A stretch of DNA of 64,000 bases from an uncultured virus (IMG/VR IMGVR_UViG_3300030106_005234) (taxonomy: Duplodnaviria > Heunggongvirae > Uroviricota > Caudoviricetes). The DNA is taken from the IMG/VR virus record IMGVR_UViG_3300030106_005234, one strand, 5' to 3'. The position numbers and the translations under genes were made by a program. This document shows, one piece after another, positions 5,477 to 60,700 of the stretch. How positions within the stretch are numbered: position 1 is the stretch's first letter; every line of letters starts with the position of its first letter. The notes below the pieces were generated by a model. That model worked only from the letters and a program-made list of their open reading frames with translations. It searched no databases and was not told the origin of the DNA.

Positions 5477-6274
5477 CTAGGAAGCTAACCCTTGAAACTT
5501 GCGGTTAAGGATTTTCACAACCTTGTTTGGCGAAAAATTTTCATAGCCTGGGTGCGTATTGGCAACCTGTTTCGCAATACGTCTAGCGCCAAGACCCCGC
5601 TTCTTACACTTTTGTATCGTATTGATGACAGCTTGCTCATCTGGGACTTCCACCAGCTTCTTGCGCGTTTTCATGCGATTGCCTTGCGGCAAGCGCTCTT
5701 CTTCAAACTCAAAGCCAAATGGTGCAGATCCACCGATCGAGTAGCCACGCTGCGCCCAAGCGATTTTGCCTTCCGCAAATTTCTTCTTGGTGTTCTCAAA
5801 CTCCATCTCAGCGACGGCAGACAAAACCATCAACATAATCTGGTTAACCAGGGAGTTCATATCGTACTTAGAATCTAAACCTTTCGCGGCCATCTCTTTC
5901 GGATAGACCACCGGCATGTCGTTGAATTGTTCGCACAGATACAAGGTCACGCCGCTTTCTTCGAGATGCGGAATCGTTTGCAGTAGATCGTTGCAGCTAC
6001 GAGACAATCTGTCGATCCTGGTAGCGATAACAATGTCATACTCATCAATTACATCGGTCATGGCCCGACACTGTTCACGCTCCATGATTGGTACGGTCCC
6101 GGATACGCCGGCATCCACGAACCACTCAGAGATGTCCCGATTAAATTTATCGCGCACAAACTCTGAAATTAGCTCTTGCTGAGTATCGATAGAGATCCCG
6201 TTCTCAGCTTGCTCCGTGGTGGACACTCGGCAGTAGCCGTAGATGTTGCGGATTTGTTTTTTAGGATTACTCAT
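5477..6274 (-). CDS. Serine recombinase (resolvase family) with C-terminal DNA-binding extension
   Basis: YGYCRVST catalytic motif, DAGVSG, RIDRLSRS, GGSAPFGF. Confidence 0.92.
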   Translation of the reverse strand: MSNPKKQIRNIYGYCRVSTTEQAENGISIDTQQELISEFVRDKFNRDISEWFVDAGVSGTVPIMEREQCRAMTDVIDEYDIVIATRIDRLSRSCNDLLQTIPHLEESGVTLYLCEQFNDMPVVYPKEMAAKGLDSKYDMNSLVNQIMLMVLSAVAEMEFENTKKKFAEGKIAWAQRGYSIGGSAPFGFEFEEERLPQGNRMKTRKKLVEVPDEQAVINTIQKCKKRGLGARRIAKQVANTHPGYENFSPNKVVKILNRKFQGLAS

Positions 6275-6524
6275 AAAACTCTCCAGACAATAATAAATGC
6301 TCCCGCTCTTTATCTAAAAAGTCGTGTAGGTCTTGCGGGTCTTGAGATTCGTTGGCTAAAAATTGTTCGACATAACTAGCGACAGTGATGTCTTTTGGTT
6401 TGATCTTTTCAATCACTTCAACTTCTAACTCACTGAGTTCCATAAGGCGATACCGTATACCGCTGCCATGCCCCCTAATTAATGGGGGGCTTCCTGGCTC
6501 ATAGTCATGAACTAAAAGTTTCAT
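6267..6524 (-). CDS. Hypothetical protein
   Basis: 85-aa ORF overlapping both neighbours in an operon-like arrangement. Confidence 0.55.
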   Translation of the reverse strand: MKLLVHDYEPGSPPLIRGHGSGIRYRLMELSELEVEVIEKIKPKDITVASYVEQFLANESQDPQDLHDFLDKEREHLLLSGEFYE

Positions 6525-6751
6525 TTATTACCCCCCACGAATCCATACTTGGTCAGCTCTTCATGAATTCGCTGCCAGTTAATGTCAAGAGGAAGACGAC
6601 CCTCAGCATAATCGCCCAGTAACAGCTGCCCGTCTTTGAGCAGCTGCACTGAGCGCCAGTTGCGTGGCGCACCGTCAAACTCAATATCAATATCATGCTT
6701 GAGGCAGGTACGTCTGACCCTGTTATAAAAACGCTTCTTTTCGGTAACCAT
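6521..6751 (-). CDS. Hypothetical protein
   Basis: Homologue at 58693..58926 (FYNRVRRTCLKHDIDI conserved). Confidence 0.8.
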   Translation of the reverse strand: MVTEKKRFYNRVRRTCLKHDIDIEFDGAPRNWRSVQLLKDGQLLLGDYAEGRLPLDINWQRIHEELTKYGFVGGNK

Positions 6752-6981
6752 TAGGCCACCTTCCTTCTGTAACTTTCCAAGCGCCCCTGCCTACACTCCC
6801 AAGCCATCAGCCTGACGCTGTAACGATCAAGAGCATCACCCTCCAGCTCGCAACGACCATTCTTTATCTGCCAAGCAAGACCAGCCAAAACTTCCGTCTT
6901 TGTAAAGTCGATTGGGTACTGGTCGCTTTTTTTGGATGCCATGCATCGGGCTACAAAATTTTGGGTTTCAACATTGTTCAT
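6751..6981 (-). CDS. Hypothetical early-type protein
   Basis: ATG at 6981 preceded by AACCGGAGA RBS and a promoter. Confidence 0.65.
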   Translation of the reverse strand: MNNVETQNFVARCMASKKSDQYPIDFTKTEVLAGLAWQIKNGRCELEGDALDRYSVRLMAWECRQGRLESYRRKVA

Positions 6982-7013
6982 TTTTTTCTCCGGTTTCGTG
7001 AATGACAATTACC

Positions 7014-7094
7014 ATTATACGCATAGCGTGTCGTAGCACAAGTCTATGTGCATATATATACGAAATGGTAATTAGACACGGAATGTGGTAAGAT
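7014..7094. promoter_or_regulatory. Divergent pair of sigma70-like promoters with GACACG spacer motif
   Basis: Minus: TTGTGC-16-TATAAT (7041-7014). Plus: TGGTAA-17-TAAGAT (7066-7094). Both spacers contain GACACG. Confidence 0.65.
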
Positions 7095-7120
7095 ATGTAT
7101 ACAACACGGAGGAGAATGCC

Positions 7121-7318
7121 ATGAAGACCGAAATCCAAAACCCCACCAAGCGCAAAGTTCGCAACCGCGGCTTTACGCCCGTGCGCTACCACCATGACTC
7201 TGGCATACACTACGGGTGGATCTACAAATTCGGCACCAAATGGAACCACGCACGGTTCCCGAGTTTGGGCAACGTTCGCATCAGCAAAGCTGACATGCGT
7301 TTTGTGAGGGAGCTGTGA
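7121..7318 (+). CDS. Small basic hypothetical protein
   Basis: GGAGGAG RBS, MKTEIQNPTKRK...; close homologue at 59352..59549. Confidence 0.8.
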   Translation: MKTEIQNPTKRKVRNRGFTPVRYHHDSGIHYGWIYKFGTKWNHARFPSLGNVRISKADMRFVREL

Positions 7319-7474: not shown

Positions 7475-10330
7475 TTAAACAGTAAGGGATAAGACGCCAG
7501 ACCGATCGTAATCAAAAGGGATCCCGGCGTTCATGAGCGCGACCTCTCTTTCATCGTTTTCATCAAAACCAATCTGACGACTTATTCGAGGGTCTTCAAC
7601 TTCACCACCCTGCGCGAAGTTTGTGCCCTCAGTTCTGTTGAGGTACTGCGCTAAATTTTCAATGAGTTCATCAGTGACTGGCTCAACCATCGGTTCCATC
7701 GCCAGGGATCCAAGCTGTTGTTGTCGAGTGAGCGGCTTTCCTGCGACGTTAGTTTTTTCTGCCATACGCGCAAAATTTTGCGGGAACATAATTTCTGGTG
7801 GAACGCCTCTGCCTGGCAGCCCTCCTAGATAGTCTCCCGGTATCACTGTGTCATAACTCAAATGATAGGGATCCTGAAACGTCGGCTTCGATGGGACGCC
7901 CTCAAATATACTGTATCCAGTTTCCGCGGGATTCAGAGTTCCTTTTGGTCCTCTGGGTATTCTGAGCGCCGGGTCTGTAACAACTTCTACGACATCTTCA
8001 TACACCGGGAAGCCGAGATTTTGCCATCTTGGCTTTTTCATTTCTTCAACGACAGCTTTACGAATGTTGCCAGAGCTAACACTGCTCGCCATCTCGCCCG
8101 TGAGCTGTGATACCAAGTCAGGACTATTCAGCCCGACAAAATCTTTGATACCCGGATTGGCTGGTGTACCTTTCTTCACGGCACTGTTAAACGCTGCAAT
8201 CTGTTTTTTGGGAATTTTCAGGTAGTCGAGCTGACCCACCATCGACAACACTACCGGCGTCGAGAAGTTGATACCCTCACGGCCCATTGCTGTGTAGACG
8301 CCTAACGGCGCCATACCAGTTTCATCCATAGCTTGGATAATGTTCATTTGTTTTTGATTCGCTGCACCTTGCATCGATGCCCAGCCTTTGCCTTTGCCAG
8401 ACATGTATAAGGGATATCCGGGGCCGCCTTGTACAGCAACAGGAAAACTTAAAGGCACACCCCGAATATCCGTTAACGCTCCAATACCCGATCGATCACC
8501 CGCGACAGGAACAAGGCTATAACCATACAGGTCGTTCGGATCTAAAATTGTACGTTCAGCAGATACAAGATCTTGTATCTCACCCGCAGCCCTGGCTTCT
8601 TCTCGACGCCTGAAAGCCGGCTTCGACAAATTTTCTGTGTATCTTTTTGCCCTAGAACGATTGAGTGACTCTGTGACAGGCTTCGACGTGTCGGGATCGA
8701 TCGTTCCCACTGGCGCTTGGTTCGCTTTGAAATTTTCTACCAGCTCATCTTTGCTTCTTGTTTTCGGCGGTTCAGGCGGACCATCGATAGAAAACACCGG
8801 CCTCACATTGTCTGGATCGAAAATATTCGTTTCGACAAGTTTACCTTCCTCAAAACGCCTCACGCCATCATAGCCTTGAGCTTTGAGATCAGATACGTCT
8901 ATCTTCGTGCGCGGGTCATAATCAATATCGAGGTAGTTCAAGTCTCTCTTGATATACACCGGCATGATGTTGGCGCCAGCTGTGCGGTTGGGTTTCACGC
9001 TCGATACGATTGCGCGGTTACCCGCCATCTCTGGATCCGGGGTGGAATACACACCTTCTCCCAAGTTCCCGGTTTTAGATGGCTTGAACCGGCTGAAGGT
9101 ATCAGACGTGCCGTGGTACATGATCTCATTTGTTTCAAAACCGGCCCTGTTAGCATCGACCACTGGGTCCAACGCTTCAATGCCGCGCTTGATAGCTTTG
9201 CCTCCTATACTGGCGCCTTTAAAAAGCGTCCCGAGTGTCGGCCCCAGAAAAGTACCCGCCACAGGCACCGCATACATGGTGTCGCCCAGAGCGCCCAGCC
9301 CCTGCATCGATGCATCAAAGTATTCTCCACCCTCAATATTCTCAGCCAAGCTCGGCATTTTTTCGCCCGAAAAGGCATCGATTAGATCCACATCTCCCGC
9401 TGGCATTGCCGGCATTTCACCGCTTGCGTCTATGTAACCCGCGCCCGGCGCAAACATAGAGCCGAAGTAAGCAAGTTGCGCCAGCGACGGCGTGGGAAGA
9501 GGACTGGTAGCGCGAGAACCCCTGACGCGGCGAGGTTCAGGCTCAAAAATATCAACGTCACCACCCTCAAAGAAATCTCTAGGCGGCGGGGTGTGGGTGT
9601 ATTCGCCAACCTGAACCGGCACGGACTTCGTGGTGCCGTCGATATCAGTCACCTCACGCATTTCTAATATTTTAACTTTCGTGCCAGCCGGAACAACTTT
9701 TGGGCTTACGTTGGGGTTAATCTCTACCGTTTCATAATTTTCTCTATGAATCCTGCCCGGTTGATCTTTGAAACTAAAATATTCATCACCTTTTTTATGC
9801 GGAATTATTTGCAATCGCGTTTGCCCGGTAGAGCGTTGCAATTCAGTTTCTTTCGGCAAGACATAAGTCAAATTTGAGCCTTCTTCCTTGGCAGCTAAAT
9901 ATCTTCTAGCCACATCACGCCACTGCTCTTCCTCTGAAAGATTAGGGTTACGATTGAACCCGGCCACCTCTTGACCTGTATAGCCACTGCCCGGTTGGTA
10001 CGCTCTTCCCAAATACAGATTTTCTTCCTTGAAAGGAATCTTTTTGACGGCCCTGCTACCGTATTTTTTTGCTATATCACCAATAACAGGAATCAACCCA
10101 ACTGCCGCGAGTGCGGTAAGAATCGCCGGGGCCGCAGCCTCACCATACCGTCCTTCAATCAGGTTGCGAACTGCGTCTCTACCGTATTTTGCAGCCGTTG
10201 CCACGTCAGCAGCCAAACCTGCCGGAGTAAATCCGGCTGCTATCTGTGCAGTGATGGGCAATTCTTCGTATGCCTCAACGCCCTTGTCCAGCATATCAGG
10301 CTCGAAGATATCGATGTTCTCGGTCGTCAT
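7475..10330 (-). CDS. Polyvalent-type protein with ADP-ribosyltransferase-like domain (probable internal virion protein)
   Basis: MYHGT...GEGVYST...IMPVYI...GYDGV...IFDPDNVR pattern typical of phage polyvalent-protein ART domains; shares a second domain with 60681..64000. Confidence 0.7.
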   Translation of the reverse strand: MTTENIDIFEPDMLDKGVEAYEELPITAQIAAGFTPAGLAADVATAAKYGRDAVRNLIEGRYGEAAAPAILTALAAVGLIPVIGDIAKKYGSRAVKKIPFKEENLYLGRAYQPGSGYTGQEVAGFNRNPNLSEEEQWRDVARRYLAAKEEGSNLTYVLPKETELQRSTGQTRLQIIPHKKGDEYFSFKDQPGRIHRENYETVEINPNVSPKVVPAGTKVKILEMREVTDIDGTTKSVPVQVGEYTHTPPPRDFFEGGDVDIFEPEPRRVRGSRATSPLPTPSLAQLAYFGSMFAPGAGYIDASGEMPAMPAGDVDLIDAFSGEKMPSLAENIEGGEYFDASMQGLGALGDTMYAVPVAGTFLGPTLGTLFKGASIGGKAIKRGIEALDPVVDANRAGFETNEIMYHGTSDTFSRFKPSKTGNLGEGVYSTPDPEMAGNRAIVSSVKPNRTAGANIMPVYIKRDLNYLDIDYDPRTKIDVSDLKAQGYDGVRRFEEGKLVETNIFDPDNVRPVFSIDGPPEPPKTRSKDELVENFKANQAPVGTIDPDTSKPVTESLNRSRAKRYTENLSKPAFRRREEARAAGEIQDLVSAERTILDPNDLYGYSLVPVAGDRSGIGALTDIRGVPLSFPVAVQGGPGYPLYMSGKGKGWASMQGAANQKQMNIIQAMDETGMAPLGVYTAMGREGINFSTPVVLSMVGQLDYLKIPKKQIAAFNSAVKKGTPANPGIKDFVGLNSPDLVSQLTGEMASSVSSGNIRKAVVEEMKKPRWQNLGFPVYEDVVEVVTDPALRIPRGPKGTLNPAETGYSIFEGVPSKPTFQDPYHLSYDTVIPGDYLGGLPGRGVPPEIMFPQNFARMAEKTNVAGKPLTRQQQLGSLAMEPMVEPVTDELIENLAQYLNRTEGTNFAQGGEVEDPRISRQIGFDENDEREVALMNAGIPFDYDRSGVLSLTV

Positions 10331-10455
10331 GCCAGGATCTTAGCAAAAATAAATTTCCTTGGACAAAAAAGATGTGTGCAAAAGTTTGCACATTTATGCA
10401 AATGCAGCGTATTATTTGTTTGTGGCAATCAAGCTACATCAAACCGGAGATTAAC

Positions 10456-10650
10456 ATGGACAATTATTTAGCTGTTGGGATTGCGGAGGGTTTTGAAGAA
10501 GCCGAAAGCGAAGAGCAAGTTATCGATGCGTGGCAACATTTGGTCGATACGGGCCTCGCATGGACGTTGCAGGGCCACTTTGGAAGAATGGCCGCCCAGC
10601 TCATTGAAGAAGGGATTATTCTCCCCCCACATCAATCGTTGGAAGATTAA
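10456..10650 (+). CDS. Hypothetical phage protein
   Basis: AACCGGAGA RBS; MDNYLAVGIAEGFEEA...AWQHLVDTGLAWTLQGHFGR. Confidence 0.75.
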   Translation: MDNYLAVGIAEGFEEAESEEQVIDAWQHLVDTGLAWTLQGHFGRMAAQLIEEGIILPPHQSLED

Positions 10651-10975: not shown

Positions 10976-11006
10976 TATGGATCAACTATCTTCGGTCGTC
11001 ATGCCA

Positions 11007-11300
11007 TCACCAGTTTTTACATGACCAATAGGACGCTTTAAACACGTCTTTCTTCTTCTCTACCGCGTCGCAATTGTGTCTGGCACGAAAGTTGCGCCGA
11101 CGACCTGGATTGTCACGCCGAATCTCCATTTTCGGATCTCCAAAACGTACAATCCTTACCTGATCACCCTTTTTTGCCAATACAGCGAATTTTTTATTCT
11201 TTCCTGGCGTCCTTTTCTGCTTGTTGTAACCAGGGAAGGACTCGCCCCGATAGATCAGTCTTCCCGATTCCGTTCTTCTCACATCAGACGTGTCAGCCAT
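11007..11300 (-). CDS. Conserved basic phage protein
   Basis: 97-aa K/R-rich ORF (VRFGDP, FRARHNC, YWSC) coupled to the upstream gene. Confidence 0.75.
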   Translation of the reverse strand: MADTSDVRRTESGRLIYRGESFPGYNKQKRTPGKNKKFAVLAKKGDQVRIVRFGDPKMEIRRDNPGRRRNFRARHNCDAVEKKKDVFKASYWSCKNW

Positions 11301-11715
11301 TCCTTTCCATCCTCTCGTAGTGACGCCAGTTACGGTCCATCACCGTAAACCAGTCCTTCATGGTCATTACGCACACTAAATCGTTTGACGCAGGCCACTC
11401 AGTATTCACGGCGTGCATCGGCAAACAGACCTGTGTCGGCTTCCTGTTGTATTTATATATCAAAACCGGGATCTTGTCTCCCGCGGCCTCACGCACCTGT
11501 GCAAGCCACTCAGGCTTATAGGTCCAGCCATTGGCATAATGCTTACACTCCACGGCATGATAGGGAATATCGATGTCCGCGAGGTCTTTTTGCTGATATT
11601 GGTCTAAATTTCGTTTGCAATTAAAATTTATGCCCTGGGACTCAAGCCACTCATTTATTTGCGCGACCACAGATCTCTCGAATGTGGCGCCTTTCCTCCT
11701 AGAATCCGCGCCCAT
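11293..11715 (-). CDS. Holliday junction resolvase-like PD-(D/E)XK nuclease
   Basis: SRRKGATFER N-terminus, ADI...AVECK catalytic motif, PVLIYK; start taken at MGADS. Confidence 0.8.
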   Translation of the reverse strand: MGADSRRKGATFERSVVAQINEWLESQGINFNCKRNLDQYQQKDLADIDIPYHAVECKHYANGWTYKPEWLAQVREAAGDKIPVLIYKYNRKPTQVCLPMHAVNTEWPASNDLVCVMTMKDWFTVMDRNWRHYERMERNG

Positions 11716-11730
11716 AGGGTCCCTTGCGAA

Positions 11731-11759
11731 TTGATATAGCCATATCGCCAGTATACCAT
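11731..11759 (+). promoter_or_regulatory. Sigma70-like promoter of the candidate sRNA
   Basis: TTGATA-17 nt-TACCAT. Confidence 0.6.
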
Positions 11760-11765
11760 TAGATC

Positions 11766-11904
11766 GCTTGCACGCCGCAATCAACAGATTGCTGGAAAGC
11801 AGGCCCTGATGCCCTCTATTGCAACCACAGCGTCCTATGGGCAGCAGGCGGCCGCCCTCACTTCCCTCTCTCCGGTTGAACTGAATGGTGGGGGCGGCCT
11901 TTTT
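11766..11904 (+). ncRNA. Candidate structured small RNA (~140 nt) with anti-RBS loop
   Basis: Bounded by the promoter and a 12-bp GC stem (11850-11861/11888-11899) followed by TTTTT. Further hairpins GCAATC/GATTGC and TGCCC/GGGCA. Loop contains TCTCCGGTT. Confidence 0.55.
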
Positions 11905-12015
11905 CCATGTATTTTTTTGAGTTTTGACTGTACCAAACTCAGCTATAGCAACTCGCGTCGCGCCGATCTGCACCAGGGGGGTGCAGGGGTCCTAATATGC
12001 CCAAATCTCCTTAAA

Positions 12016-12137
12016 AATCAAGCACTTAGGGGTCCCAGCAGACCTGAAACGTATTCCCTCTGCTCACTGCACGCACATTCTTGCACAGTTTTGCACATGC
12101 TTGCACATCCCAAAAGTCCTTTAATATCAATGACTTA
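12016..12137 (+). promoter_or_regulatory. Two IHF-consensus sites flanking phased TTGCACA repeats (candidate packaging/terminus region)
   Basis: AATCAAGCACTTA (12016-12028) and TATCAATGACTTA (12125-12137) match WATCAANNNNTTR; TTGCACA at 12081, 12091, 12101; lies next to terS. Confidence 0.5.
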
Positions 12138-12205
12138 GGGGATTCGATCGATTTTCCGGGATTTTAGGGCGTAAACGGGGCGCGGGCCGGGACGTAGTTT
12201 TTTTT

Positions 12206-12718
12206 CTAATGGTCAGATAGATCTGGGTCGATGTTTTCTGCGCCCAGGAGCTTGGCTAGCCGGTCCTTGATATCGTCGCTCGACATTGAGTCAATGTTCG
12301 CGTTGATGTTGAGGTTCTGAGACCTGCTGATGTTAAGGCCGGCCAGCTGGTTCAGTTCTTTGATGGCAGAAACCGCGGCGTTGTGATGTCCATCCTCGAA
12401 TGCCACCTCCGCAATCTTCCACAACATCGTGCCAGTCTTCTGTGGAGTGATCGCGTATTTTTCTCTCAGCTCTTCCTGCTTGAGTCGAACCGCTTTAGTC
12501 ACCTTCGGGTAAGCTTTGCCGTTGAGCATCTTGTTCGCGGCTGATGATGGAAACTCGAACCCAGCCCGTCGAGCTGCTTCAGTCTGACTGCAAGCACCTT
12601 CGGTGTAATGCCACACGAATGCATTCTGCATCGCAGTAATGCCTAATTCTTCATCCTTATCAAACTGACTAGGTACTGAGACTAACTGCGGCTTCTCTTT
12701 TTTTGGTCGTCCTGCCAT
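12206..12718 (-). CDS. terS: Terminase small subunit
   Basis: TAMQNAFVWHY...SQTEAARRAGF...SAANKML HTH-like N-terminus; AVSAIKELNQLAGL C-terminal motif. Confidence 0.8.
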   Translation of the reverse strand: MAGRPKKEKPQLVSVPSQFDKDEELGITAMQNAFVWHYTEGACSQTEAARRAGFEFPSSAANKMLNGKAYPKVTKAVRLKQEELREKYAITPQKTGTMLWKIAEVAFEDGHHNAAVSAIKELNQLAGLNISRSQNLNINANIDSMSSDDIKDRLAKLLGAENIDPDLSDH

Positions 12719-12870
12719 TCGCCCTTCACGTAATTCCTGAACACCATCCACGCTTCTTCGCGCTCGTATGGCCGTAGATTGTAATTGTTGCGCTCATCGC
12801 TGTTAAGCAAAAACCATCGCTCGAAGTTGGATTCAAAACTCTGGCTGTCATTGTATTGAAACTCAACCAT
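12682..12870 (-). CDS. Hypothetical protein
   Basis: 62-aa ORF with GGAG RBS, upstream of terS. Confidence 0.6.
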   Translation of the reverse strand: MVEFQYNDSQSFESNFERWFLLNSDERNNYNLRPYEREEAWMVFRNYVKGEWQDDQKKRSRS

Positions 12871-13182
12871 CCTGTGTCTCCATGCTTGCTAGGTAGTGTA
12901 GGGTACATATAACCGCGTTAGTACCTGTTTGCACCGTGCATAAATGCTTTTACCCCTATTTATGCGCTTATAAAATATATATATATATAGTGTACCTAAC
13001 ACTACCTATAGGACTAACACCAGTAAAAATGGGGCTTTCAGCACAGGGTACAGTCCAGTGCATAGTGTGTCTTTTCACCCTTCCCGATCGACCTTAAATT
13101 TGCGAGTCCAGTTATGAAAGACAATACAGCGACCCGCGGCCACCATCGGCAGGGTCGCATTCCCTGCCCCCGCACCTGATTA

Positions 13183-13422: not shown

Positions 13423-13772
13423 GCTCCATCCTTGATTGTGTTCAGCTTCATCGTAATGGTGTTGTAGATATCCTTTCCGCCGTGCTTGTCGGGATGCATA
13501 TGATTGACCATCAGCCGCACCTCTTCCTTGGTGAACCCGGAGTAAGTGACGGCAGCTCGTTTTCCTTTTCGCCTGAGATACTGGTTGGTTTCAAGCAGCG
13601 CGTTGTATCGCGCCTGGCAGTTCTTATTCTCGTTTTCCAGCTTCTGGATCTCTTCGAGCATCCCTTCGATTACTGATTTTTCTATAACCAGTGAATCTGG
13701 TTCAGCCCGACTAGCCAGGCCAGTCATTTCATTAAGAAGGCCATTACTGTTGTCAATATCCTCACCGCTCAT
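13419..13772 (-). CDS. Coiled-coil hypothetical protein with HPDKHGG motif
   Basis: AGGAGG RBS; ATGA overlaps with neighbours. Confidence 0.65.
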   Translation of the reverse strand: MSGEDIDNSNGLLNEMTGLASRAEPDSLVIEKSVIEGMLEEIQKLENENKNCQARYNALLETNQYLRRKGKRAAVTYSGFTKEEVRLMVNHMHPDKHGGKDIYNTITMKLNTIKDGA

Positions 13773-14101
13773 CGAGCAACCTCCTGGCTACCAGATTGTC
13801 CATCTTTGAAATTCAGTTCGTATTTCTGCATCCAATTTGCAATCTCTTCAAAAGTTTTGACACCCACATTAGTGGTGCAACGCAGCTCGCGAGTAGTAAC
13901 TTCTTCTATGTCGCAGACCATAAAAACCTTGCATCGTCTAAGTCCGCGCCTTGCTCTAGTCGATAACTCATACAAAGCAGGATGCACGTCTGGCCTGCTT
14001 TTAAGATTTCCGGCGTTGGGGAGTTCAGCCGTAATAAAATCGATGCGCTCACCGTTGGTTTTCACTGAGCTTGCGAAGCGCTCTAACTGTTCATCTTTCA
14101 T
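13769..14101 (-). CDS. RNA polymerase alpha-CTD-like domain protein
   Basis: ELSTRARRGLRR...ELRCTTNVGVKTFEEI resembles alpha-CTD (ELTVRSANCLK...ELLKTPNLGKKSLTEI). Confidence 0.7.
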   Translation of the reverse strand: MKDEQLERFASSVKTNGERIDFITAELPNAGNLKSRPDVHPALYELSTRARRGLRRCKVFMVCDIEEVTTRELRCTTNVGVKTFEEIANWMQKYELNFKDGQSGSQEVAR

Positions 14102-16410: not shown

Positions 16411-16484
16411 CCCCTTGCCCCGTCAATGTTCTTTTTTGTACAATATCATACACTTTTATAAATGTGAAAACCGGAGGACAAGAG

Positions 16485-17247
16485 ATGGGATTAACAGTAT
16501 CAAGTGGTGGTGGCGATTATGAAAGTTTGCAGCCAGGCCGCTACAAGGCAACGTGCTATAAGATCATAGACGCCGGCACTCGGATGGAGTCCTATCAGGG
16601 TGGTGCTGAACGCAAGCGTACATTGGTGTATCTGTATTGGGAGGCCAGCCACATTCAAATGGGTGAAGACGGTGAGGAGTTCTGGGATGACATCGCAATG
16701 TCGGACGGCAGACCGTTCAGTATATCGAAAAAGTACACCGCCTCTCTCAATGACAACGCAACCTTACACCTCGATTTGAAATCTTGGCGTGGTAAACCAT
16801 TTTCGGCGGATGACTTGAAAGCTTTCGACATCGCGAATTTGCTCGGCAAGACTTGCGAGCTTGAAGTCANNNNNNNNNNNNNNNNNNNNNNNNNNNNNNN
16901 NNNNNNNNNNNNNNNNNNNNNNNNNNNNNNNNNNNNNNNNNNNNNNNNNNNNNNNNNNNNNNCCAGACGGTGGTGTCAAATCTGTGAAGACAGAGAACGA
17001 GCAGGTTGCGTTCGATCTTGACAAGTACGTGCTGGAGTTCACTGGCCAGTCTTGCGAAGAATCGAAGGCCATGTGTGATATCTATGAGGATATGCCGTCA
17101 TGGATGAAAGAGATGATCGAAGACTCGTTTGAGTTGAAAGCGGCCAAGGAACAAGGCAGCTCGCAACCAGCACCAGGTCCTAACAAGTCTGGGGGGTTGG
17201 CAGATTTTTCAAAAGACGACCCGGACGATGGAGACGTGCCTTTCTAA
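16485..17247 (+). CDS. Single-stranded DNA-binding/replication protein (interrupted by assembly gap)
   Basis: PGRYKATCYKIIDAGT, KKYTASL, LKSWRGKPF and an acidic tail ending DDGDVPF; frames differ across the N run. Confidence 0.7.
16870..16962. other. Assembly/scaffold gap (93 N)
   Basis: Run of N. Confidence 0.99.
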
Positions 17248-18228: not shown

Positions 18229-18424
18229 CGATCAGGAAACCATCTGGGCGGAGCAAAAAAAGTTAGCAGCCGCCCGATGGGTTTGGCTGCGGCGACGTGA
18301 TAAGACGCCCGCCAAAAAAACCACCTGGGAACGATGGTGGGAACAAATGTTCGAGGACAACTACGAGGACTACACATCGCGGCAGATCAGCGCCCAAACC
18401 AAGACCGGGCGCTCTGCAGATTAG
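18155..18424 (+). CDS. Hypothetical protein (start uncertain)
   Basis: Trp-rich ORF (TWERWWEQMF) downstream of the exonuclease. Confidence 0.45.
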   Translation: MRQSNSSGRMASQAHRWWILATSGDDQETIWAEQKKLAAARWVWLRRRDKTPAKKTTWERWWEQMFEDNYEDYTSRQISAQTKTGRSAD

Positions 18425-19106
18425 TTTTCTTGATGTGCGAGCATGGTTTGCCGTCTTCCTCGAAAACTTCCACGATGAACGGGTACAGCCTCGCCCTGGC
18501 GTTGTAGCCAAATAAGCGGATTTTTAAATTCCCGAACGTTTGCACTACGGTCGATGATAAGTTGTGTTTTTCGCACCCCAGAGGAAGGGCACGTTTTTGC
18601 CTGTCGAAATTAGCCGATCGCCTGTCCCGTGATATCGTTTCGTGCTGTTCTTTCCCAGACACATCGCCTTCAGGAATCTGTACGGGAGAGGTCACCACGT
18701 AAATCTTCTCTATAAAAGAACGACCTTTCGCCGCGGTCTCAACACGCTCACAATGCCACTGATCGATCAATCGACCCTTGTCGATAACTACCATGTGCGT
18801 TCTAAGGGCCACTAGGTATGTCACACTTGGGTCAGCGTACTTGATCCAAAACTTGCGCACAGTCAGGCGCCCTAATCCTATCAACTCCATTTCTTTCAAC
18901 CTCACGTCGAACTGACTGTGCAAAAGCCGCGTAAGCTTGCTGGTAACAGTGCTACCTCTCCAGCGCCCGTCCTTGTTGTTGGCCAGCTTATAGGCGTCGA
19001 ACACCTCTTGCGGTTCTACACCAGCAATCAGCGCTCCACAAAAAATGCCGCAACAAGGCAGGTTGCAGCAAAATTCGCCGTTGATTTTTTTCGGGTCCAT
19101 GATCAC
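18387..19106 (-). CDS. Hypothetical protein
   Basis: 239-aa ORF with AGGAGG RBS and its own GACACG-type promoter. Confidence 0.7.
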   Translation of the reverse strand: MIMDPKKINGEFCCNLPCCGIFCGALIAGVEPQEVFDAYKLANNKDGRWRGSTVTSKLTRLLHSQFDVRLKEMELIGLGRLTVRKFWIKYADPSVTYLVALRTHMVVIDKGRLIDQWHCERVETAAKGRSFIEKIYVVTSPVQIPEGDVSGKEQHETISRDRRSANFDRQKRALPLGCEKHNLSSTVVQTFGNLKIRLFGYNARARLYPFIVEVFEEDGKPCSHIKKTNLQSARSWFGR

Positions 19107-19126: not shown

Positions 19127-19209
19127 ATTTTGCACATGTGCGTGTCAAAGTACAACAATAAATATATTTTTGTAAAAAGCTTTACATGGACACGGTAATT
19201 TGAGATACT
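19127..19209. promoter_or_regulatory. Divergent sigma70-like promoters with GACACG spacer motif
   Basis: Minus: TTGTAC-17-CAAAAT (19155-19127). Plus: TTTACA-17-GATACT with extended TG (19181-19209). Confidence 0.7.
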
Positions 19210-19248
19210 CTTTTTGTCGGGGGGATGCCCCTGCCTTAACCGGAGAAG

Positions 19249-20372: not shown

Positions 20373-20415
20373 CTTTTCGTCGGGGCAATAACGCCAAGGC
20401 AAACCGGAGAAGACG

Positions 20416-20814
20416 ATGAGCGAAGCACAACAACAGTGGACCGCAAAAGATGTTGAATGGTCAATTTATTACGACACCACCAGCGACGACATTGATGATT
20501 GGGTGGAAAACAATGAAGTTGGTGCCGATGACGACGGTTGGGTCGAAAACATTCCAGACGGCATTTACGAAGTTAACCAGCGCAATTGGAACACCAACCG
20601 CCGGATCTCCCTGCAAACGAAGGTCTTGGTATGGAACGGCAAGATTGATATCCAGTCTTCAAAAGAAGCGGTTGCAGAGTTCCTCAACAAAACTGGTGAC
20701 TGGCATTATTTTATCGAGGGCGTCATGTTTGGCAAAAAAGTTACGAAGGTGTTCGACAAGAACGGCAAGCACGTCGAAACGCAACGAACCCTTCAATTTG
20801 TTTTGGGGAGCTAA
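20416..20814 (+). CDS. Hypothetical early-type protein
   Basis: AACCGGAGA RBS; 132 aa. Confidence 0.7.
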   Translation: MSEAQQQWTAKDVEWSIYYDTTSDDIDDWVENNEVGADDDGWVENIPDGIYEVNQRNWNTNRRISLQTKVLVWNGKIDIQSSKEAVAEFLNKTGDWHYFIEGVMFGKKVTKVFDKNGKHVETQRTLQFVLGS

Positions 20815-38876: not shown

Positions 38877-39281
38877 CTAGTCGTACTTCTTGATCATTTC
38901 TAAAATAATCATATAACTGTCGCCACTGGAGTGACCCACAGTAGTGAAGTCAATGTCTCCGGTTTTGCCAGATCCAGCGTTATTTGGAATGGCGGTGAAG
39001 TTGTCATAATACTCATCGCCCGTCGCATCCGCCGGGATATGGGTGAGCAGCACGCTCGATGTCGCATCGAATTCCAGCTTGACGCTCATGCCCACCGTCA
39101 TCCAGTAAATTCTTTGGATGTGGACTTCCGTGCAGGCTTGCCCAGCCGAGTTTGCAGCCAAGGCAGACACGTCCACCTTTTTGACTGCTGACTCGCCCGT
39201 GCCGTCAGACACGTTGGTGAACCGCATTACTGCGGTTCTCTCGCCGTCCTGAATAGTTTGCGAAGCTACAGCATCAGCCAT
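38877..39281 (-). CDS. Conserved virion-associated protein
   Basis: AGGAGG RBS; MADAVASQTI...SDGTGESAVKKVDVS. Confidence 0.7.
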   Translation of the reverse strand: MADAVASQTIQDGERTAVMRFTNVSDGTGESAVKKVDVSALAANSAGQACTEVHIQRIYWMTVGMSVKLEFDATSSVLLTHIPADATGDEYYDNFTAIPNNAGSGKTGDIDFTTVGHSSGDSYMIILEMIKKYD

Positions 39282-40108: not shown

Positions 40109-41944
40109 TTATCCGAACACTTTTTGGTAAGCCTCGGCTAAACCTGCGCTCACGATTTGGGCTTTGTATTTCCGTATCATGGTTTTTGCGGCATGCTGTT
40201 GCGCTGGCGTCCATTGGTCTTGGCTGAAAAGGCTTTTGCCGAAGCGCGTATCCGCTCCGTTAAAACCAACCCCGTCTTCGGCAGCTGCACCGTCACACGC
40301 TCCAGCGACAACACCAACAAAATCCTGTAAAGCATCTACCACTTTTGCAGGTAAGGCCTTCACCGATTTCTTGTTTTTTGCGGAAAATACTTTCTCTACA
40401 GTTTCCACATCGATTGCAATGTCCTCGATGCTGACGTTGTTTTCGACCACGTTGTCGAGCGCTTTATCGAGAACTTTCTGCTTATTGACTAGGACTTCCG
40501 CCAACCTCGCATCGATTGACCCGTCAACAACCAAGTGTTGTACCAGCACTGAATTGTCCTGGCCAATTCTGTGGCAGCGATCCTCAGCCTGTGACACGTT
40601 ACCAGGCACCCAGTCAAGCTCTGCAAACACAACGTGACTGGCAGAGGTCAAGGTAATTCCTACACCGGCAGCTCCGATGGTGCCGATAAAAACGTCAGCG
40701 TTACCGGCTTGGAATGTGTCAACAGAGTTTTGACGATGAGCTTGTGTGCAATCGCCTGTGAGGGTGACCACGGTCTTGCCAGCGACTTCAAGGCCTTGCT
40801 TGATGCCCTCGACGACATCTTTGTGGTGGGCCATAACGACCACTTGATGATCGATATCCGCGACGTGAGCAACCACATCAGCAACCTTCGCAAGCGCTGT
40901 ATCGTGCCGCACACCTGACATCTGCTCAAACTCTACCTCTTGTGAGGATGTTTCTGTGACTGCATCTGCAAGAGTTTCAAACTCTTTTTTGACCTCATCG
41001 CTGTAATTGGCGTTTGGCAGAACAATGATCTGTCGCACTTTCTCAGGCAGCTCCTTCAAGACCTGGTCTTTTTTTCTGCGGATCATAAATGACTGGCGCA
41101 GCAATCTTTGCAGCTCATCTAGGTTAGAAGCGCCATCAAAGTGCCAGCCGAATCGATCCCGATATGCAGCTGCGTAACGACGACCAAACTGGAAGAAATT
41201 ACCAAAGGTTGCCGGATCCAAGTAACCAGCGATTGGCTGCAGCTCGATCGGACGGTTCGTGATGGGTGTCCCGGTCAATACAACCTTGCGGTTTGCTTTG
41301 ATGCCTACAGCTACGCCAGTGCGCTTCGCTTTTGGGTTCTTGATGTAATGGGCCTCATCCATGATAACGAGATCCCAAGTACGTGCGTTGATCGCGTCTT
41401 TGTGCTTAGTCAGCACGTCGTAGTTGATGATAACCACGTCAGGTGTCCCAGGGATCTGCTCACCACCACCGTTGACGATCTGAATGTCACGCTCAGCGAC
41501 CAACCATTTGGTCATTTCGTTTTTCCAGTTGATCTTGAGAGACGCTGGGCATACAACCAACACGGTTTGAGGAGCTGTAGCATTAATCACGCCGATAGCT
41601 TGTATGGTTTTACCTAGACCCATTTCATCGCCAATCAGTGTAGATTGGCGCTGTGTCGCATACGCGATACCCGCCCTTTGATACGGAAGGTACGCCAGGC
41701 CAGCTGGCACTGGGATTTCAATGTCTGCATCAACAGCTTGAGAGTCGGCGATCGCCTGATCGTTATCTCTGAGGCGGGTGACCACCCATTGATCAGAGAC
41801 TTTGCGAACAGAATAACCGGCAGCTTTCACTGCTGCCTTACGCTCGCGCCACACTTGCCAAAAGTCTGCATTTGGCGTAGCAGTGCTTTTCAAGCGGCCA
41901 TCGGTGTGGACGGTTTCTTCTGACCAATTTAATTCCAAGTTCAT
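40109..41944 (-). CDS. SNF2-family (HARP/SMARCAL1-like) helicase
   Basis: PYQ, DEMGLGKT, VCPASL, DEAH, LTGTP, GVGITL, QAEDRCHRIGQ; start at MNLELNW after GGAG RBS and promoter. Confidence 0.9.
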   Translation of the reverse strand: MNLELNWSEETVHTDGRLKSTATPNADFWQVWRERKAAVKAAGYSVRKVSDQWVVTRLRDNDQAIADSQAVDADIEIPVPAGLAYLPYQRAGIAYATQRQSTLIGDEMGLGKTIQAIGVINATAPQTVLVVCPASLKINWKNEMTKWLVAERDIQIVNGGGEQIPGTPDVVIINYDVLTKHKDAINARTWDLVIMDEAHYIKNPKAKRTGVAVGIKANRKVVLTGTPITNRPIELQPIAGYLDPATFGNFFQFGRRYAAAYRDRFGWHFDGASNLDELQRLLRQSFMIRRKKDQVLKELPEKVRQIIVLPNANYSDEVKKEFETLADAVTETSSQEVEFEQMSGVRHDTALAKVADVVAHVADIDHQVVVMAHHKDVVEGIKQGLEVAGKTVVTLTGDCTQAHRQNSVDTFQAGNADVFIGTIGAAGVGITLTSASHVVFAELDWVPGNVSQAEDRCHRIGQDNSVLVQHLVVDGSIDARLAEVLVNKQKVLDKALDNVVENNVSIEDIAIDVETVEKVFSAKNKKSVKALPAKVVDALQDFVGVVAGACDGAAAEDGVGFNGADTRFGKSLFSQDQWTPAQQHAAKTMIRKYKAQIVSAGLAEAYQKVFG

Positions 41945-41997: not shown

Positions 41998-42018
41998 CAA
42001 TTTGCATAAAGTTATGAA

Positions 42019-42435
42019 GGACATAAAACACAGCTATAGGAGCTGTTACAGGAGGTAACTTCAACACACCAATAGGAGTGTTTTGAAGCGACAAGTACTT
42101 AAAACACACCAATAGGTGTATTTAAAAACGACAAGTACTTAAAACACAGCTATAGGAGCTGTTACAGGAGGTAACTTCAACACACCAATAGGAGTGTTTT
42201 GAAGCGACCGGGACATAAAACACAGCTATAGGAGCGGTCACCGGAGATAACTTCAACACGCCAATAGGAGTGTTTGAAAACCACTGGTACACAGAACACA
42301 CCAATAGGAGTGTTTGAAAACCACTGGTACACAGAACACACCAATAGGAGTGTTTGAAAACGACAGGTATCTACAACACACCAATAGGAGTGTTTGAAAA
42401 CGACGGGTATACAAAATACTGCTATAGGAGCTTAA
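42019..42435 (+). repeat. Array of 11 hairpin units (36-nt type A, 40-nt type B) with ATAGGAG core; candidate CsrB/RsmZ-like ncRNA
   Basis: Core starts at 42036, 42072, 42112 (ATAGGTG), 42152, 42188, 42228, 42264, 42304, 42344, 42384, 42424. Confidence 0.9.
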
Positions 42436-42487: not shown

Positions 42488-42688
42488 TCACAAATTATCG
42501 CTATCAGCACTCATTAGCTGTTTGTGTATTTCCGCCACTGTATCGAAACTCGCGTTCAAAACTCTTGCTGCGGTGTCTGATATTTGCACTTGCTCCGATC
42601 CGCTCAAATCCTCCAGCAAATTCTGCCGCTCTTCATTCATCAGGCCAACAAGGTAATCCCGTTGCTTGATTGTTAACTCTATTCGCAT
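42488..42688 (-). CDS. Small hypothetical protein
   Basis: CAACCGGAGA RBS, MRIELTIKQR..., own promoter. Confidence 0.65.
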   Translation of the reverse strand: MRIELTIKQRDYLVGLMNEERQNLLEDLSGSEQVQISDTAARVLNASFDTVAEIHKQLMSADSDNL

Positions 42689-42719
42689 TTCTGTCTCCGG
42701 TTGTTCCACTGATTTGCAG

Positions 42720-57629: not shown

Positions 57630-58421
57630 TCAGGCTGCGCTGGGCAAACCCTGAAATTTGCGCTTCAAGATTCGCTGCACTTTTGAGTGCGTGAGCGGCG
57701 GGATGTCGTGCAAGCTGTTGACTTGGTTTGCGATTTTGCGAGGGCCGAGACCGCGCTTGTTGAGACGGTAGATTGTTTTGAGCACCGCCTGCTCTTCTGG
57801 CACCTCTTCAAGATACTTGCGCGTCTTGCTGCCAGTCTTGTGCTCGACGTGGCGGTAGCCATACGGAGCTGAGCCACCAATGGCGTAGCCGCGAGATGCC
57901 CAGTCGAGTTTGCCGGCGGCAAAGCGATCCTTGATCGTCGCGTGCTCGATCTCGGCAACCGCCGACAACACCATCAGCATGATCTGGTTCGCCATGTGGT
58001 TCATATCAAATTTAGCATCCAAGCCCTTGGTGCGTGCGGCATCTGGATAGACAATCGGCATCTCGCCAAACTGCTCACAGAAAAACAGGGTGATCCCAAT
58101 CTCTTGCAACTTGGGAATCAAGGCAAGCAGGTCGGAGCTGGAGCGTGACAGTCGGTCGAGCCGGGTGCAAACCACCACATCGTGCTCGTCAATCACGTCA
58201 GTCATGTCTCGACTGGCAGGACGATCCAGCACCGCGTGAGTACCAGAGACGCCCTCGTCCGCGAAGAACTGATCAACCTCGCGATTGTATTTCTCATGCA
58301 CAAATTCGCTGATCTGCTGCATCTGCGTTTCGAGCGAGATGCCCGACTTTACCTGCTCGTCTGTGGACACACGCACATATCCGTAGATGTTGTTGATCTG
58401 CCGTAATGGGTTGCCGCTCAT
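57630..58421 (-). CDS. Serine recombinase (resolvase family)
   Basis: YGYVRVST, DEGVSG, RLDRLSRS; homologue of 5477..6274. Confidence 0.92.
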   Translation of the reverse strand: MSGNPLRQINNIYGYVRVSTDEQVKSGISLETQMQQISEFVHEKYNREVDQFFADEGVSGTHAVLDRPASRDMTDVIDEHDVVVCTRLDRLSRSSSDLLALIPKLQEIGITLFFCEQFGEMPIVYPDAARTKGLDAKFDMNHMANQIMLMVLSAVAEIEHATIKDRFAAGKLDWASRGYAIGGSAPYGYRHVEHKTGSKTRKYLEEVPEEQAVLKTIYRLNKRGLGPRKIANQVNSLHDIPPLTHSKVQRILKRKFQGLPSAA

Positions 58422-58696
58422 TACTCGACCCTCCACATACGAATTGCGCCTTTGTCCTCGCTTGTTCTTTGAGCTATCTTCACCCCTTGTTTTCTAGCCA
58501 TTGCCTTGAAAACATTGCCCTCTTTCGAGTATCGCTGTGCTTTGTTGCCCTCGCCCCATATTGTGTCCACAGCAAACTCGACGCTATCTCCAATCTCCAT
58601 AACATTCAAAACGTCCTGAAACTCTTGGTGTCTTGGGGTTCGCATGTGGCTTCGGTTTTCGGGCATCGGTATGCCTTTATCAATCTTCAACATCAC
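58421..58696 (-). CDS. Hypothetical protein
   Basis: IDKGIPMP...MEIGDSVEF...IRMWRVE; similar to 10652..10975. Confidence 0.7.
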   Translation of the reverse strand: MMLKIDKGIPMPENRSHMRTPRHQEFQDVLNVMEIGDSVEFAVDTIWGEGNKAQRYSKEGNVFKAMARKQGVKIAQRTSEDKGAIRMWRVE

Positions 58697-58926
58697 TTCA
58701 CTCCACCTTTGTAGCCGTAATCGGCCATCTCTTCGTGCAGCCGCTGCCAGTTGATATCCAGCGGCATGTTGTCGGTGCTGCGGTCAGCGAACATCACCTG
58801 ACCATCCTTGACCAGCTCCACGCCAAACACTGCCTTAGGCATCCCATCGTACCGAATGTCGATGTCGTGCTTGAGGCAGGTGCGGCGCACCCGGTTATAG
58901 AAAATCTTCTTTTCCTGTGCAGTCAT
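58693..58926 (-). CDS. Hypothetical protein
   Basis: Homologue of 6521..6751. Confidence 0.8.
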   Translation of the reverse strand: MTAQEKKIFYNRVRRTCLKHDIDIRYDGMPKAVFGVELVKDGQVMFADRSTDNMPLDINWQRLHEEMADYGYKGGVK

Positions 58927-59204
58927 TACCCTGCCTCCTTCTGTAAAAATTCGTCGTAGATCTCCTTCACCGCATCGGTTGCGCCAAGCTCGCGAGCTTG
59001 CTGTGCAAGATATTTGCCCACCTCTGTGATCTTGAAAGCCTTATAAGTGAAGCTCCACAGCTCCTCTTCCGTCATCACTGCGCCGCGCCGAAATAGCTCA
59101 GGCAAAACCATTGCCTCGATGGGGGTCAGGTTGTGTTTGAGGGCAAACTTGTTCAGGTCGGCCATGAATAATTGCTCGTTAGAAGTTTTTTCGTCTTTGG
59201 TCAT
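58926..59204 (-). CDS. Hypothetical protein
   Basis: Start MTKDEK downstream of the promoter. Confidence 0.6.
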   Translation of the reverse strand: MTKDEKTSNEQLFMADLNKFALKHNLTPIEAMVLPELFRRGAVMTEEELWSFTYKAFKITEVGKYLAQQARELGATDAVKEIYDEFLQKEAG

Positions 59205-59231
59205 CACTTGATCTCTCAACAGGAAAATCAA

Positions 59232-59322
59232 AGAATACCGCATCGCGTGTCGATGTGCAAGTGTTAATTCAACATGCACATAAATATGGAGCTTTGCATA
59301 TGGACACGGCATGTGTTAAAAT
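59232..59322. promoter_or_regulatory. Divergent sigma70-like promoters with GACACG
   Basis: Minus: TTGCAC-17-TATTCT (59260-59232). Plus: TTGCAT-17-TAAAAT (59294-59322). Confidence 0.7.
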
Positions 59323-59351
59323 GTTTGTGCGTCACCACAAAGGAGAACGTG

Positions 59352-59549
59352 ATGAAGACCGAAATAAAAAACCCCACCAAGCGCAAAATTCGCAAACGAG
59401 GGTTTACACCGATACGCTATTATCATGACTCTGGCATCCACCACGGGTGGATCTACAAAGTTGGCACAAAATACAGCCACGCTCGCTTCCCGAGTTTGGG
59501 CAACGTGCGAATTAGCAAAGATGACATGCGTTTTGTGAGGGAGCTGTAA
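59352..59549 (+). CDS. Small basic hypothetical protein
   Basis: AGGAG RBS; homologue of 7121..7318. Confidence 0.8.
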   Translation: MKTEIKNPTKRKIRKRGFTPIRYYHDSGIHHGWIYKVGTKYSHARFPSLGNVRISKDDMRFVREL

Positions 59550-60555: not shown

Positions 60556-60700
60556 GACTTATGTCCGCGACATTCACGACATGGATGAGCTGCATGACTT
60601 GATCCAAGATTTGATGGATCAATTTGTGTACGAGGACGACCAGGTTACGGTGAAGATTACTGCTGAAATTGCGGCCAACCTTACAGCGCCACATCCATAG
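60530..60700 (+). CDS. Small acidic hypothetical protein
   Basis: GAGG RBS; MKNLTITFET. Confidence 0.5.
   Translation: MKNLTITFETYVRDIHDMDELHDLIQDLMDQFVYEDDQVTVKITAEIAANLTAPHP

Follow-up and report, generated by a model that had tools for sequence, protein, structure and literature searches.

Between two minus-strand genes of an uncultured marine phage, encoding a PD-(D/E)XK endonuclease and a terminase-small-subunit-like protein, lies a hairpin-rich intergenic segment, raising the question of whether it specifies a regulatory RNA and which messages such an RNA would address. The phage is represented by a stretch of 64,000 nucleotides (nt; IMG/VR record IMGVR_UViG_3300030106_005234), here called the window, to which all coordinates refer. 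In an original prediction, the segment was proposed to encode a small RNA (sRNA) whose terminal loop is antisense to a ribosome-binding word shared by several dispersed genes and which would silence them by masking their Shine-Dalgarno sequences. The present analysis revealed a conserved structure on the plus strand, an accessible and invariant word in its loop, and an invariant complementary word at ribosome-binding sites, the distribution of which follows that of the loop. We interpret the element as a new family of phage sRNA that most likely masks a private ribosome-binding tag, and give this reading a probability of roughly 0.55.

A conserved structure on the plus strand

Both flanking genes are encoded on the minus strand and the complement of the loop word, ACCGGAGA, has the same sense as these neighbours; therefore, the question of strand was decisive. 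Folding of the plus strand between 11761 and 11904 gave three hairpins with a free energy of −64 kcal/mol (z = −3.87), a value equalled by none of 200 shuffled sequences. The last hairpin, formed by pairing of 11850-11862 with 11887-11899, directly precedes a run of five T. The final hairpin and T run of the original prediction were, hence, borne out, with a stem of 13 instead of 12 base pairs (bp) and a loop of 24 instead of 26 nt. The coordinates of the predicted TTGATA-17-TACCAT promoter proved correct, and a consensus scan of 11200-12400 returned it as the sole sigma-70-like match. The ~140 nt downstream had been described as hairpin-rich and without a convincing open reading frame (ORF), which was also found here. 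A 109-codon plus-strand ORF at 11809-12138, overlapping the sRNA, was not kept in the 11 relatives checked, and coding by it was rejected on that ground.

Searches with the flanking proteins fetched 87 IMG/VR loci (designated L, e.g. L018; genome records are designated G, e.g. G001), 76 of which also carry the endonuclease gene. A module of ~150 nt containing ACCGGAGA, bounded by a conserved block (TATAGCTGAGTT...) on one side and the endonuclease promoter on the other, was present in 26 of these 76 (21 contigs, 17 distinct sequences; a 22nd contig was found in addition). When the window and 15 distinct IMG/VR relatives were aligned using MAFFT, the 16 homologues showed a mean column identity of 55% and 14 invariant columns, eight of which are consecutive and correspond to TCTCCGGT in the loop of hairpin 3, amid flanking loop bases that vary. 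A flank pattern independent of the loop gave 67 matches, and all 14 family members among them contained TCTCCGGT.

From this alignment, RNAalifold recovered hairpin 3 only, with 11 consensus pairs, five of them showing changes on both sides. The stem was paired in 96.0% of 174 cells, compared with 34-64% in slid controls, and its covariation score of 0.464 (0.294 upon shuffling) was reached in none of 500 shuffles. Co-variation of the stem had been anticipated, together with co-variation of the loop and the ribosome-binding word; the latter was absent, as neither side varies. Hairpins 1 and 2 rest on single-sequence folds, where the three-hairpin architecture was found in 16 of 16 homologues despite differing stem sequences, as evident from the variants UGCCC/GGGCA, CCGCGC/GCGCGG, CCGCCC/GGGCGG and AGCCUCUU/AAGGGGCU in the stem of hairpin 2.

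Concerning the strand, 34 cells of hairpin 3 are G.U or U.G pairs, which turn into A.C mismatches on the minus strand and leave the stem there ~78% paired. The minimum free energy (MFE) of the plus strand was below that of the minus strand in all 16 homologues, and z values ranged from −2.4 to −6.5 on the plus strand versus +0.8 to −3.3 on the minus strand, with the plus strand being more negative in 15 of 16 and L018 as the exception. The stem pairing, the asymmetry of the G.U pairs and the better folding of the plus strand indicate that selection acts on the structure in the form of an RNA from the plus strand, antisense to the neighbouring genes. The loop word was calculated to be unpaired with a probability of 0.60-0.82, compared with 0.32-0.48 for the whole RNA, conforming with the unpaired loop that had been predicted.

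At the promoter, TTGnnn-17-TAnnAT was kept in all relatives inspected, with the −35 variants TTGATA, TTGCAG, TTGTCT and TTGCTA and the −10 variants TACCAT, TAACAT and TAGCAT. The 3' end consists of a GC-rich, co-varying stem and a U-run, as in a Rho-independent terminator, and 12 of 16 homologues have at least four consecutive T no more than 3 nt from the stem; a terminator scan confined to loops of up to 8 nt does not list hairpin 3. Upstream of the endonuclease gene, TGnTATACT is present in relatives with and without the sRNA, and the relatives without the module combine this motif (or nnGTATACT) with an almost leaderless endonuclease gene and have no plus-strand −35. In Rfam, no family was matched at E ≤ 10 by 11300-12400, and none at gathering scores by the whole window or by six of the relatives' loci. 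A blastn search of 11000-13000 against deposited phages yielded only a 126-nt match of 73% to Roseobacter phage CRP-2, which lies outside the sRNA.

In the adjoining DNA, almost every relative, sRNA-less ones included, has kept the DNA sequence of a block at 11905-11949 (minus sense TATAGCTGAGTTTGGTACAGTCAAAACTCAAAAAAA), and the rest of the intergenic region (11950-12205) contains repeated TTGCACA and ACTTAGGGG(T/A) words. Block and repeats, located beside the terminase-like gene, may constitute a packaging or replication site.

The complementary word at ribosome-binding sites

On the two strands of the window, the 9-mer AACCGGAGA has seven exact matches versus 0.44 expected, and none of 100 shuffles reached seven. 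Five of the copies are ribosome-binding sites, one lies in coding sequence and one is the antisense copy in the loop of hairpin 3. All five ribosome-binding copies sit 5 nt before an ATG, at distances of 1.3 to 31 kb from the sRNA and on both strands, and their leaders share nothing except the 9-mer. Several elements of the original prediction could, thus, be verified: the five sites are exact and the 9-mer has, apart from the loop, one other copy, in a coding sequence at 38956; four of the five sites follow a promoter with a GACACG spacer (the exception being 10442), and both the 10-nt match at 42694 and the near-match at 16469, ahead of a gene for an SSB-like protein, are real. The coding copy at 38956-38964 (−) has the same protein context in G004 and G011 and is held by coding constraint, not as a ribosome-binding site. 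One-mismatch versions of AACCGGAGA were not enriched in the window (16 vs. 11.8 expected).

The phage also uses AGGAGGTGATC, which we take to be the complement of the canonical 16S 3' end, and the anti-Shine-Dalgarno sequence of the host is evidently canonical. The ACC part of the word is, therefore, not explained by the ribosome, as it cannot extend the 16S pairing.

In nine records of relatives carrying the module, ACCGGAGA occurs 11, 10, 4, 4, 7, 6, 2, 2 and 3 times, amounting to 49 copies as compared with eight of a reversed control word; the counts are not independent in the near-duplicate records G003/G015 and G004/G013. When a copy was counted as a ribosome-binding site if a start codon followed at 4-7 nt and the ORF had 45 codons or more, 31 of the 49 copies qualified; nine are the sRNA loops and nine are others, mostly coding. 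Variation in the bases next to the word is seen at ribosome-binding sites and in the loops alike, so that both partners conserve just the same stretch of 8 nt. The records of six relatives without the module (153 kb in total) contain 0 (a complete 60-kb genome), 1, 0, 0, 0 and 0 copies and are also without GACACGG promoters. The terminase of the window shares 61% identity with its counterpart in seawater phage 023Pt_psg01 and 56% with the terminases of Pelagibacter phages HTVC027P and HTVC023P; in the deposited genomes nearest by terminase (023Pt_psg01, DSL-LC04 and HTVC027P), 0, 1 and 0 copies of ACCGGAGA were found.

A sister clade (L029-L038) has GACACGG promoters and, at the same place, a hairpin with a T-run but a different loop. 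Its five fragments contain a single copy of ACCGGAGA, in coding sequence, and the Shine-Dalgarno sequence at its three promoter-proximal ribosome-binding sites is AGGA or AGGAG and never the word. Because this clade combines the promoters with another loop and no tagged ribosome-binding site, the word appears to track the loop and not the promoter type, in a small sample where the comparison is essentially one between clades. Different GC-rich hairpins at the same place were also observed in L076, L077 (~150 nt upstream of the endonuclease gene) and L232, an adjacent T-run having been checked for L029-L038 only. On the sRNA strand, the loops of these other clades are pyrimidine-rich and anti-Shine-Dalgarno-like (ACUCCUUUU with CCUCAAC, UCUCUCUU and CUAUCCUGC), and they may point to a more ancient group of phage anti-Shine-Dalgarno RNAs in which loops can be exchanged.

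In most cases, a tagged gene is the one directly behind a TTGCAC-nn-GACACGG-...-TATAAT promoter. Nine sigma-70-like promoters of the window carry GACACG(G) between a TTGCAC-like −35 and the −10. The hexamer as such is not enriched (28 vs. 29.6 expected); the promoter context recurs in relatives, and GACACG may be the site of a phage transcription factor. A 110-amino-acid (aa) protein at 13769-14101 (−) has a domain resembling the C-terminal domain of the RNA polymerase alpha subunit (PF03118, E = 2.9e-6, above cut-off) and is a candidate phage transcription regulator. In relatives, some tagged genes follow a hammerhead-like element instead, where CUGAUGAG, a stem, CGAAAC, a short stem and GUC directly precede the ACCGGAGA leader. 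The Rfam matches of these elements are weak (RAGATH-1-hammerhead, E = 0.19; HH9, E = 0.1) and far below gathering scores, and no such element was found in the window; cleavage, if it occurs, would give the tagged leader a new 5' end.

The set of tagged genes differs between relatives. In the window, the promoter of a SNF2 helicase gene (start at 41944) leads to a decayed word, AACGGAGCA, and the orthologues in G001, G002, G004 and G011 have the exact word. Gene 18387-19106 has the canonical AGGAGGTGATC in the window, as opposed to the word before its orthologue in G002. The set is, therefore, not fixed between orthologues, which supports the proposal that genes join it by adopting the motif, and also the idea that they may leave it. 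The word is also carried by the orthologues of target 5 in G001 and G002, and the orthologue of the SSB-like gene in G012 has the exact ACCGGAGA. In the window, the SSB-like gene is interrupted by 93 consecutive N (16870-16962).

Table 1. Features of the candidate sRNA locus, its proposed targets and associated elements
Feature	Position	Strand	Remarks
Candidate sRNA, ~140 nt	11766..11904	+	5' end inferred ~7 nt past the −10; 3' end at the T-run
sRNA promoter	11731..11759	+	−35 TTGATA 11731-11736, 17-nt spacer, −10 TACCAT 11754-11759
Hairpin 1	11766..11804	+	MFE; hairpin at the same place in 16/16 homologues, stem sequences differ
Hairpin 2, C/U-rich loop	11805..11848	+	MFE; hairpin kept, stem sequences vary
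Hairpin 3, terminator-like, carries the seed	11850..11899	+	GC-rich 13-bp stem, 24-nt loop
T5 run	11900..11904	+	Directly 3' of hairpin 3
Loop seed TCTCCGGTT	11869..11877	+	Core TCTCCGGT 11869-11876 invariant
Endonuclease gene, PD-(D/E)XK	11293..11715	−	PF24608, E = 3.9e-11; phrog_244 ('RusA-like Holliday junction resolvase'), E = 6.9e-19; ATG 11715-11713
Extended −10 TGGTATACT of endonuclease promoter	11750..11758	−	Overlaps the sRNA −10; promoters back-to-back
Terminase-small-subunit-like gene	12206..12751	−	phrog_51, E = 2.3e-9; Pfam Terminase_2, E = 4e-4, below cut-off
Proposed target 1, AACCGGAGA-N5-ATG	6987..6995	−	76-aa gene 6751-6981; GACACG promoter
Proposed target 2, AACCGGAGA-N5-ATG	10442..10450	+	64-aa DUF7417 gene 10456-10650; no GACACG promoter
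Proposed target 3	19238..19246	+	Gene 19249/19252-19743; GACACG promoter; extra ATG 2 nt past the motif
Proposed target 4	20402..20410	+	Gene 20416-20814; GACACG promoter
Proposed target 5, 10-nt match CAACCGGAGA	42694..42702	−	66-aa gene 42488-42688; GACACG promoter
Possible weaker target, near-match AACCGGAGG	16469..16477	+	Before SSB-like gene starting at 16485
GACACG promoters	7027(−), 7075(+), 19141(−), 19189(+), 20352(+), 41983(−), 42734(−), 59246(−), 59303(+)		Three divergent pairs
Hammerhead-like elements (relatives)	L115:1411-1508 (G001 ~41180-41258); G002 near 34123, 34390; G011 (L132, L137)		

Elsewhere in the window, a PHROGs scan revealed terminase, portal, head, tail-fibre, lysis, primase/helicase and exonuclease genes. 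Words of the CCAATAGGAGTG/CACTCCTATTGG type occur eight times, several of them in tandem just upstream of the helicase promoter (42010-42130 (−)), and look like iterons or operators; TTAGGGGC occurs seven times. Two diverged copies of a module, at 5477-7200 and 57630-59400, combine a gene for a small serine recombinase (invertase-like, PF00239) with divergent GACACG promoters. Both contain a gene for a small basic protein starting with MKTEI(Q/K)NPTKRK and each adjoins a large tail-fibre or tail-spike gene; they may form a tail-fibre switching system. Proteins of 951 and 1095 aa, encoded at 7475-10330 (−) and 60681-63968 (−), gave sub-cut-off matches to the ADP-ribosyltransferase domain of polyvalent proteins.

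Proposed mechanism and competing explanations

According to the reading we prefer, a non-coding RNA of ~140 nt would be transcribed from the plus strand, antisense to the two minus-strand neighbours, starting at a sigma-70-type promoter placed back-to-back with that of the endonuclease gene and ending at the GC-rich hairpin and the U-run. The large loop of hairpin 3 would display UCUCCGGU(U) in unpaired form and pair with ACCGGAGA, a private extension of the Shine-Dalgarno core GGAG, in a set of scattered promoter-proximal genes that have the word 5 nt before the start codon. The tagged genes would comprise those of small proteins of unknown function in the window and, in relatives, those of the SNF2 helicase, the SSB-like protein and others. 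Since the pairing would cover GGAG, it would most likely block 30S binding and lower translation as the RNA accumulates. A conserved single-stranded seed and complementarity to the initiation regions of unlinked mRNAs were both found; that the RNA is transcribed, that it pairs in vivo and represses its targets, and when it does so, is inferred. Opening of the word was calculated to cost 1.0-4.1 kcal/mol in the sRNA loop and 1.7-2.9 kcal/mol at the mRNA target sites, with a duplex energy of −13.0 kcal/mol for the 8-mer and −13.9 kcal/mol for the 9-mer.

Several results weigh against this reading. The single promoter match in 11200-12400 is no more than chance would give (1.2 expected), and its −10, TACCAT, is weak. 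The loop of hairpin 3, 24 nt in the window and 12-24 nt across the homologues, is atypical for an intrinsic terminator, and the T tract is interrupted in 4 of 16 homologues (L026, L027, L034 and L037). Five of the nine GACACG promoters of the window lead to no exact word, four of them to other Shine-Dalgarno sequences including a perfect AGGAGGTGATC at 19141(−); the remaining four of the nine do lead to it. The co-occurrence of word and loop is largely that of one clade versus the rest and is, hence, phylogenetically confounded. In the sister clade, represented by fragments of 7-13 kb, the loop words were not enriched at gene starts and no matching private word was found, the loop sharing only a 4-5-nt core, AGGA or CAGGA, with the three ribosome-binding sites. 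Net predicted binding is modest, at about −6 to −10 kcal/mol. Prediction of targets by duplex energy, which the original prediction had put forward as a check, failed: over 1980 candidate start regions, RNAduplex did not set the motif sites apart (ranks 3, 10 and 15 among the regions listed), and each of 30 shuffled loops produced at least as many low-energy hits. Hybridisation energy alone is, therefore, no evidence here. Moreover, loop and ribosome-binding word never vary, and no compensatory change links them. A search of sequencing runs listed no RNA run containing this stretch. Three metatranscriptome runs, searched at 80% likeness, gave no cover of 11483-12483 and no transcript of the sRNA; only two diverged contigs were recovered, falling on the coding sequences of the endonuclease and the terminase-like protein, which makes this result uninformative. 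Of the predicted anti-Shine-Dalgarno sRNA, in sum, comparison among relatives strongly supports the conserved, structured plus-strand RNA with a candidate promoter, a terminator-like 3' hairpin and an accessible loop complementary to the tag; the energy scan did not support it.

It is conceivable that the plus-strand RNA is real but acts in cis only, arising by divergent transcription from the symmetric GTATAC −10 region and having no target in trans. Its terminator would then insulate the terminase-like gene from antisense transcription, or the RNA would pair with minus-strand RNA reading through between the terminase-like and endonuclease genes and thereby control how these are expressed. 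In favour of this, a palindromic −10 is shared by the two overlapping, back-to-back promoters, any transcript reading through from one minus-strand gene into the other would be complementary to the RNA over its full length, and a scan found no minus-strand terminator-like site between the two genes. Because the sRNA and the endonuclease mRNA would start at diverging 5' ends, the overlap is limited to such a possible read-through transcript. We consider a pure cis role unlikely, as it leaves unexplained both the eight invariant bases amid a varying loop and RNA and their exact complementarity to the most conserved ribosome-binding word of dispersed genes. The same invariant loop speaks against ACCGGAGA being merely the site of a protein, an endoribonuclease or repressor of the RegB or RegA kind, with the RNA loop modulating, protecting or competing; a protein site alone predicts no complementary loop of this constancy. 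T4 RegB cuts GGAG in early mRNAs and needs a longer conserved context (PMC1702504). The word is likewise conserved beyond the needs of pairing with 16S RNA, the sequence of which is presumed here. A scan for RegA, RegB or Hfq-like domains found none in 57 proteins (Pfam) or 71 proteins (PHROGs), a weak argument given that most of them are of unknown function. Overall, we judge a protein site to be distinctly improbable.

Two further accounts dispense with a trans-acting RNA altogether. If the element worked within the minus-strand mRNA, its loop would show the ribosome-binding site of a tiny ORF (GTG 11861, 8 codons), an alternative already named in the original prediction, or a standby or decoy site upstream of the endonuclease gene. 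The word does have the sense of the flanking genes, and a start codon follows within 1-7 nt in most variants. Yet the starts are inconsistent (GTG +7, ATG +2, TTG +3, ATG +1/+4), compared with N5-ATG at the real targets, the L002/L006/L008 variant has no start codon, and ORF lengths vary between 2 and 26 codons without conservation of the peptides. With 34 of the 174 stem cells becoming A.C mismatches and the minus strand folding worse in 16 of 16 homologues, little credence can be given to this account. The loop copy might, finally, be a hitch-hiking relic of a promoter-leader cassette captured by chance in the terminator hairpin; word-carrying leaders are duplicated with extended similarity within genomes of relatives (...ataactaACCGGAGAtaaaaATG several times in G001). 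A relic would decay, but the word is invariant across 16 diverged homologues that differ in the other loop bases, and the five leaders of the window have just the 9-mer in common, rendering this explanation barely credible.

Masking of a private tag by an sRNA, thus, remains our preferred reading, and a more speculative one may be built on it that reaches beyond the single phage. Given that tag and loop are identical clade-wide, tagged genes of a related phage entering the same cell would also be shut down by the resident RNA, and the sRNA may double as a weapon of cross-immunity or competition. In its widest form, the claim would be that uncultured marine phages of one clade possess a translational regulon addressed by RNA, in which a private 8-nt tag on the Shine-Dalgarno core marks a changeable subset of promoter-proximal genes and is read by the terminator loop of one sRNA, an all-RNA counterpart of T4 RegA/RegB with a possible role in cross-immunity, drawn from an older sRNA family with exchangeable loops. 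This wider claim is tentative, and we would rate it well short of even odds.

Relation to known systems

Temporal programmes of phages are explained mostly by transcription factors, modification of RNA polymerase and a few protein translational regulators, and the phage sRNAs known to us have as targets either one linked operon or genes of the host. In a search confined to one collection of papers, including passages of a 2025 review of phage sRNAs (PMC12197685), no phage sRNA acting on dispersed genes of its own phage via a shared ribosome-binding tag was found. If true, the proposed mechanism would represent a new layer of phage gene control, in which dispersed own genes are addressed via a dedicated ribosome-binding tag, and it would explain the odd, hyper-conserved Shine-Dalgarno contexts of some phage genes. 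Tag and RNA would also provide a compact, portable pair for translational control, and the turnover of tags between orthologues makes the evolution of the regulon directly readable from genomes.

Among bacterial RNAs, RsaE and RNAIII of S. aureus and RoxS of B. subtilis use C/U-rich loops to pair with the Shine-Dalgarno sequences of several unlinked mRNAs, which are repressed. These RNAs are host-encoded and their targets have ordinary G-rich Shine-Dalgarno sequences, whereas here the phage would encode both the RNA and a private 8-nt tag. The CI immunity RNA of P4 is a small stable phage RNA pairing with short repeated targets on phage transcripts; it causes premature termination in one operon, from the leader of which it is processed, unlike the dispersed anti-ribosome-binding-site loop proposed here.

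The c4 RNA is cut from a longer precursor transcript and acts on one linked operon (icd-ant) in immunity, whereas at least five dispersed genes, a candidate promoter of its own and a terminator-like hairpin are seen here. In addition, the present RNA had no Rfam match at E ≤ 10 and its sites are not located downstream in the same operon. According to PMC12197685, c4 of phages P1 and P7 has loops that pair with sites around the ribosome-binding site and block expression, and it shares with our candidate that a phage-encoded small RNA has a loop complementary to the region of a ribosome-binding site; the family (Rfam RF01695) is listed in PMC2864571. In T4, RegB recognises GGAG in a longer conserved context, according to PMC1702504 and PMC3014915, and RegA and RegB resemble the system described here in that phage control is aimed at the Shine-Dalgarno or initiation regions of dispersed early messages. 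Those regulators are proteins, whereas the regulator proposed here is an RNA, and no homologue of them was detected (57 proteins searched with Pfam and 71 with PHROGs). By analogy, then, the c4 RNA of P1 and P7 is the nearest case, with a functional resemblance to T4 RegA/RegB in which RNA would take the place of protein.

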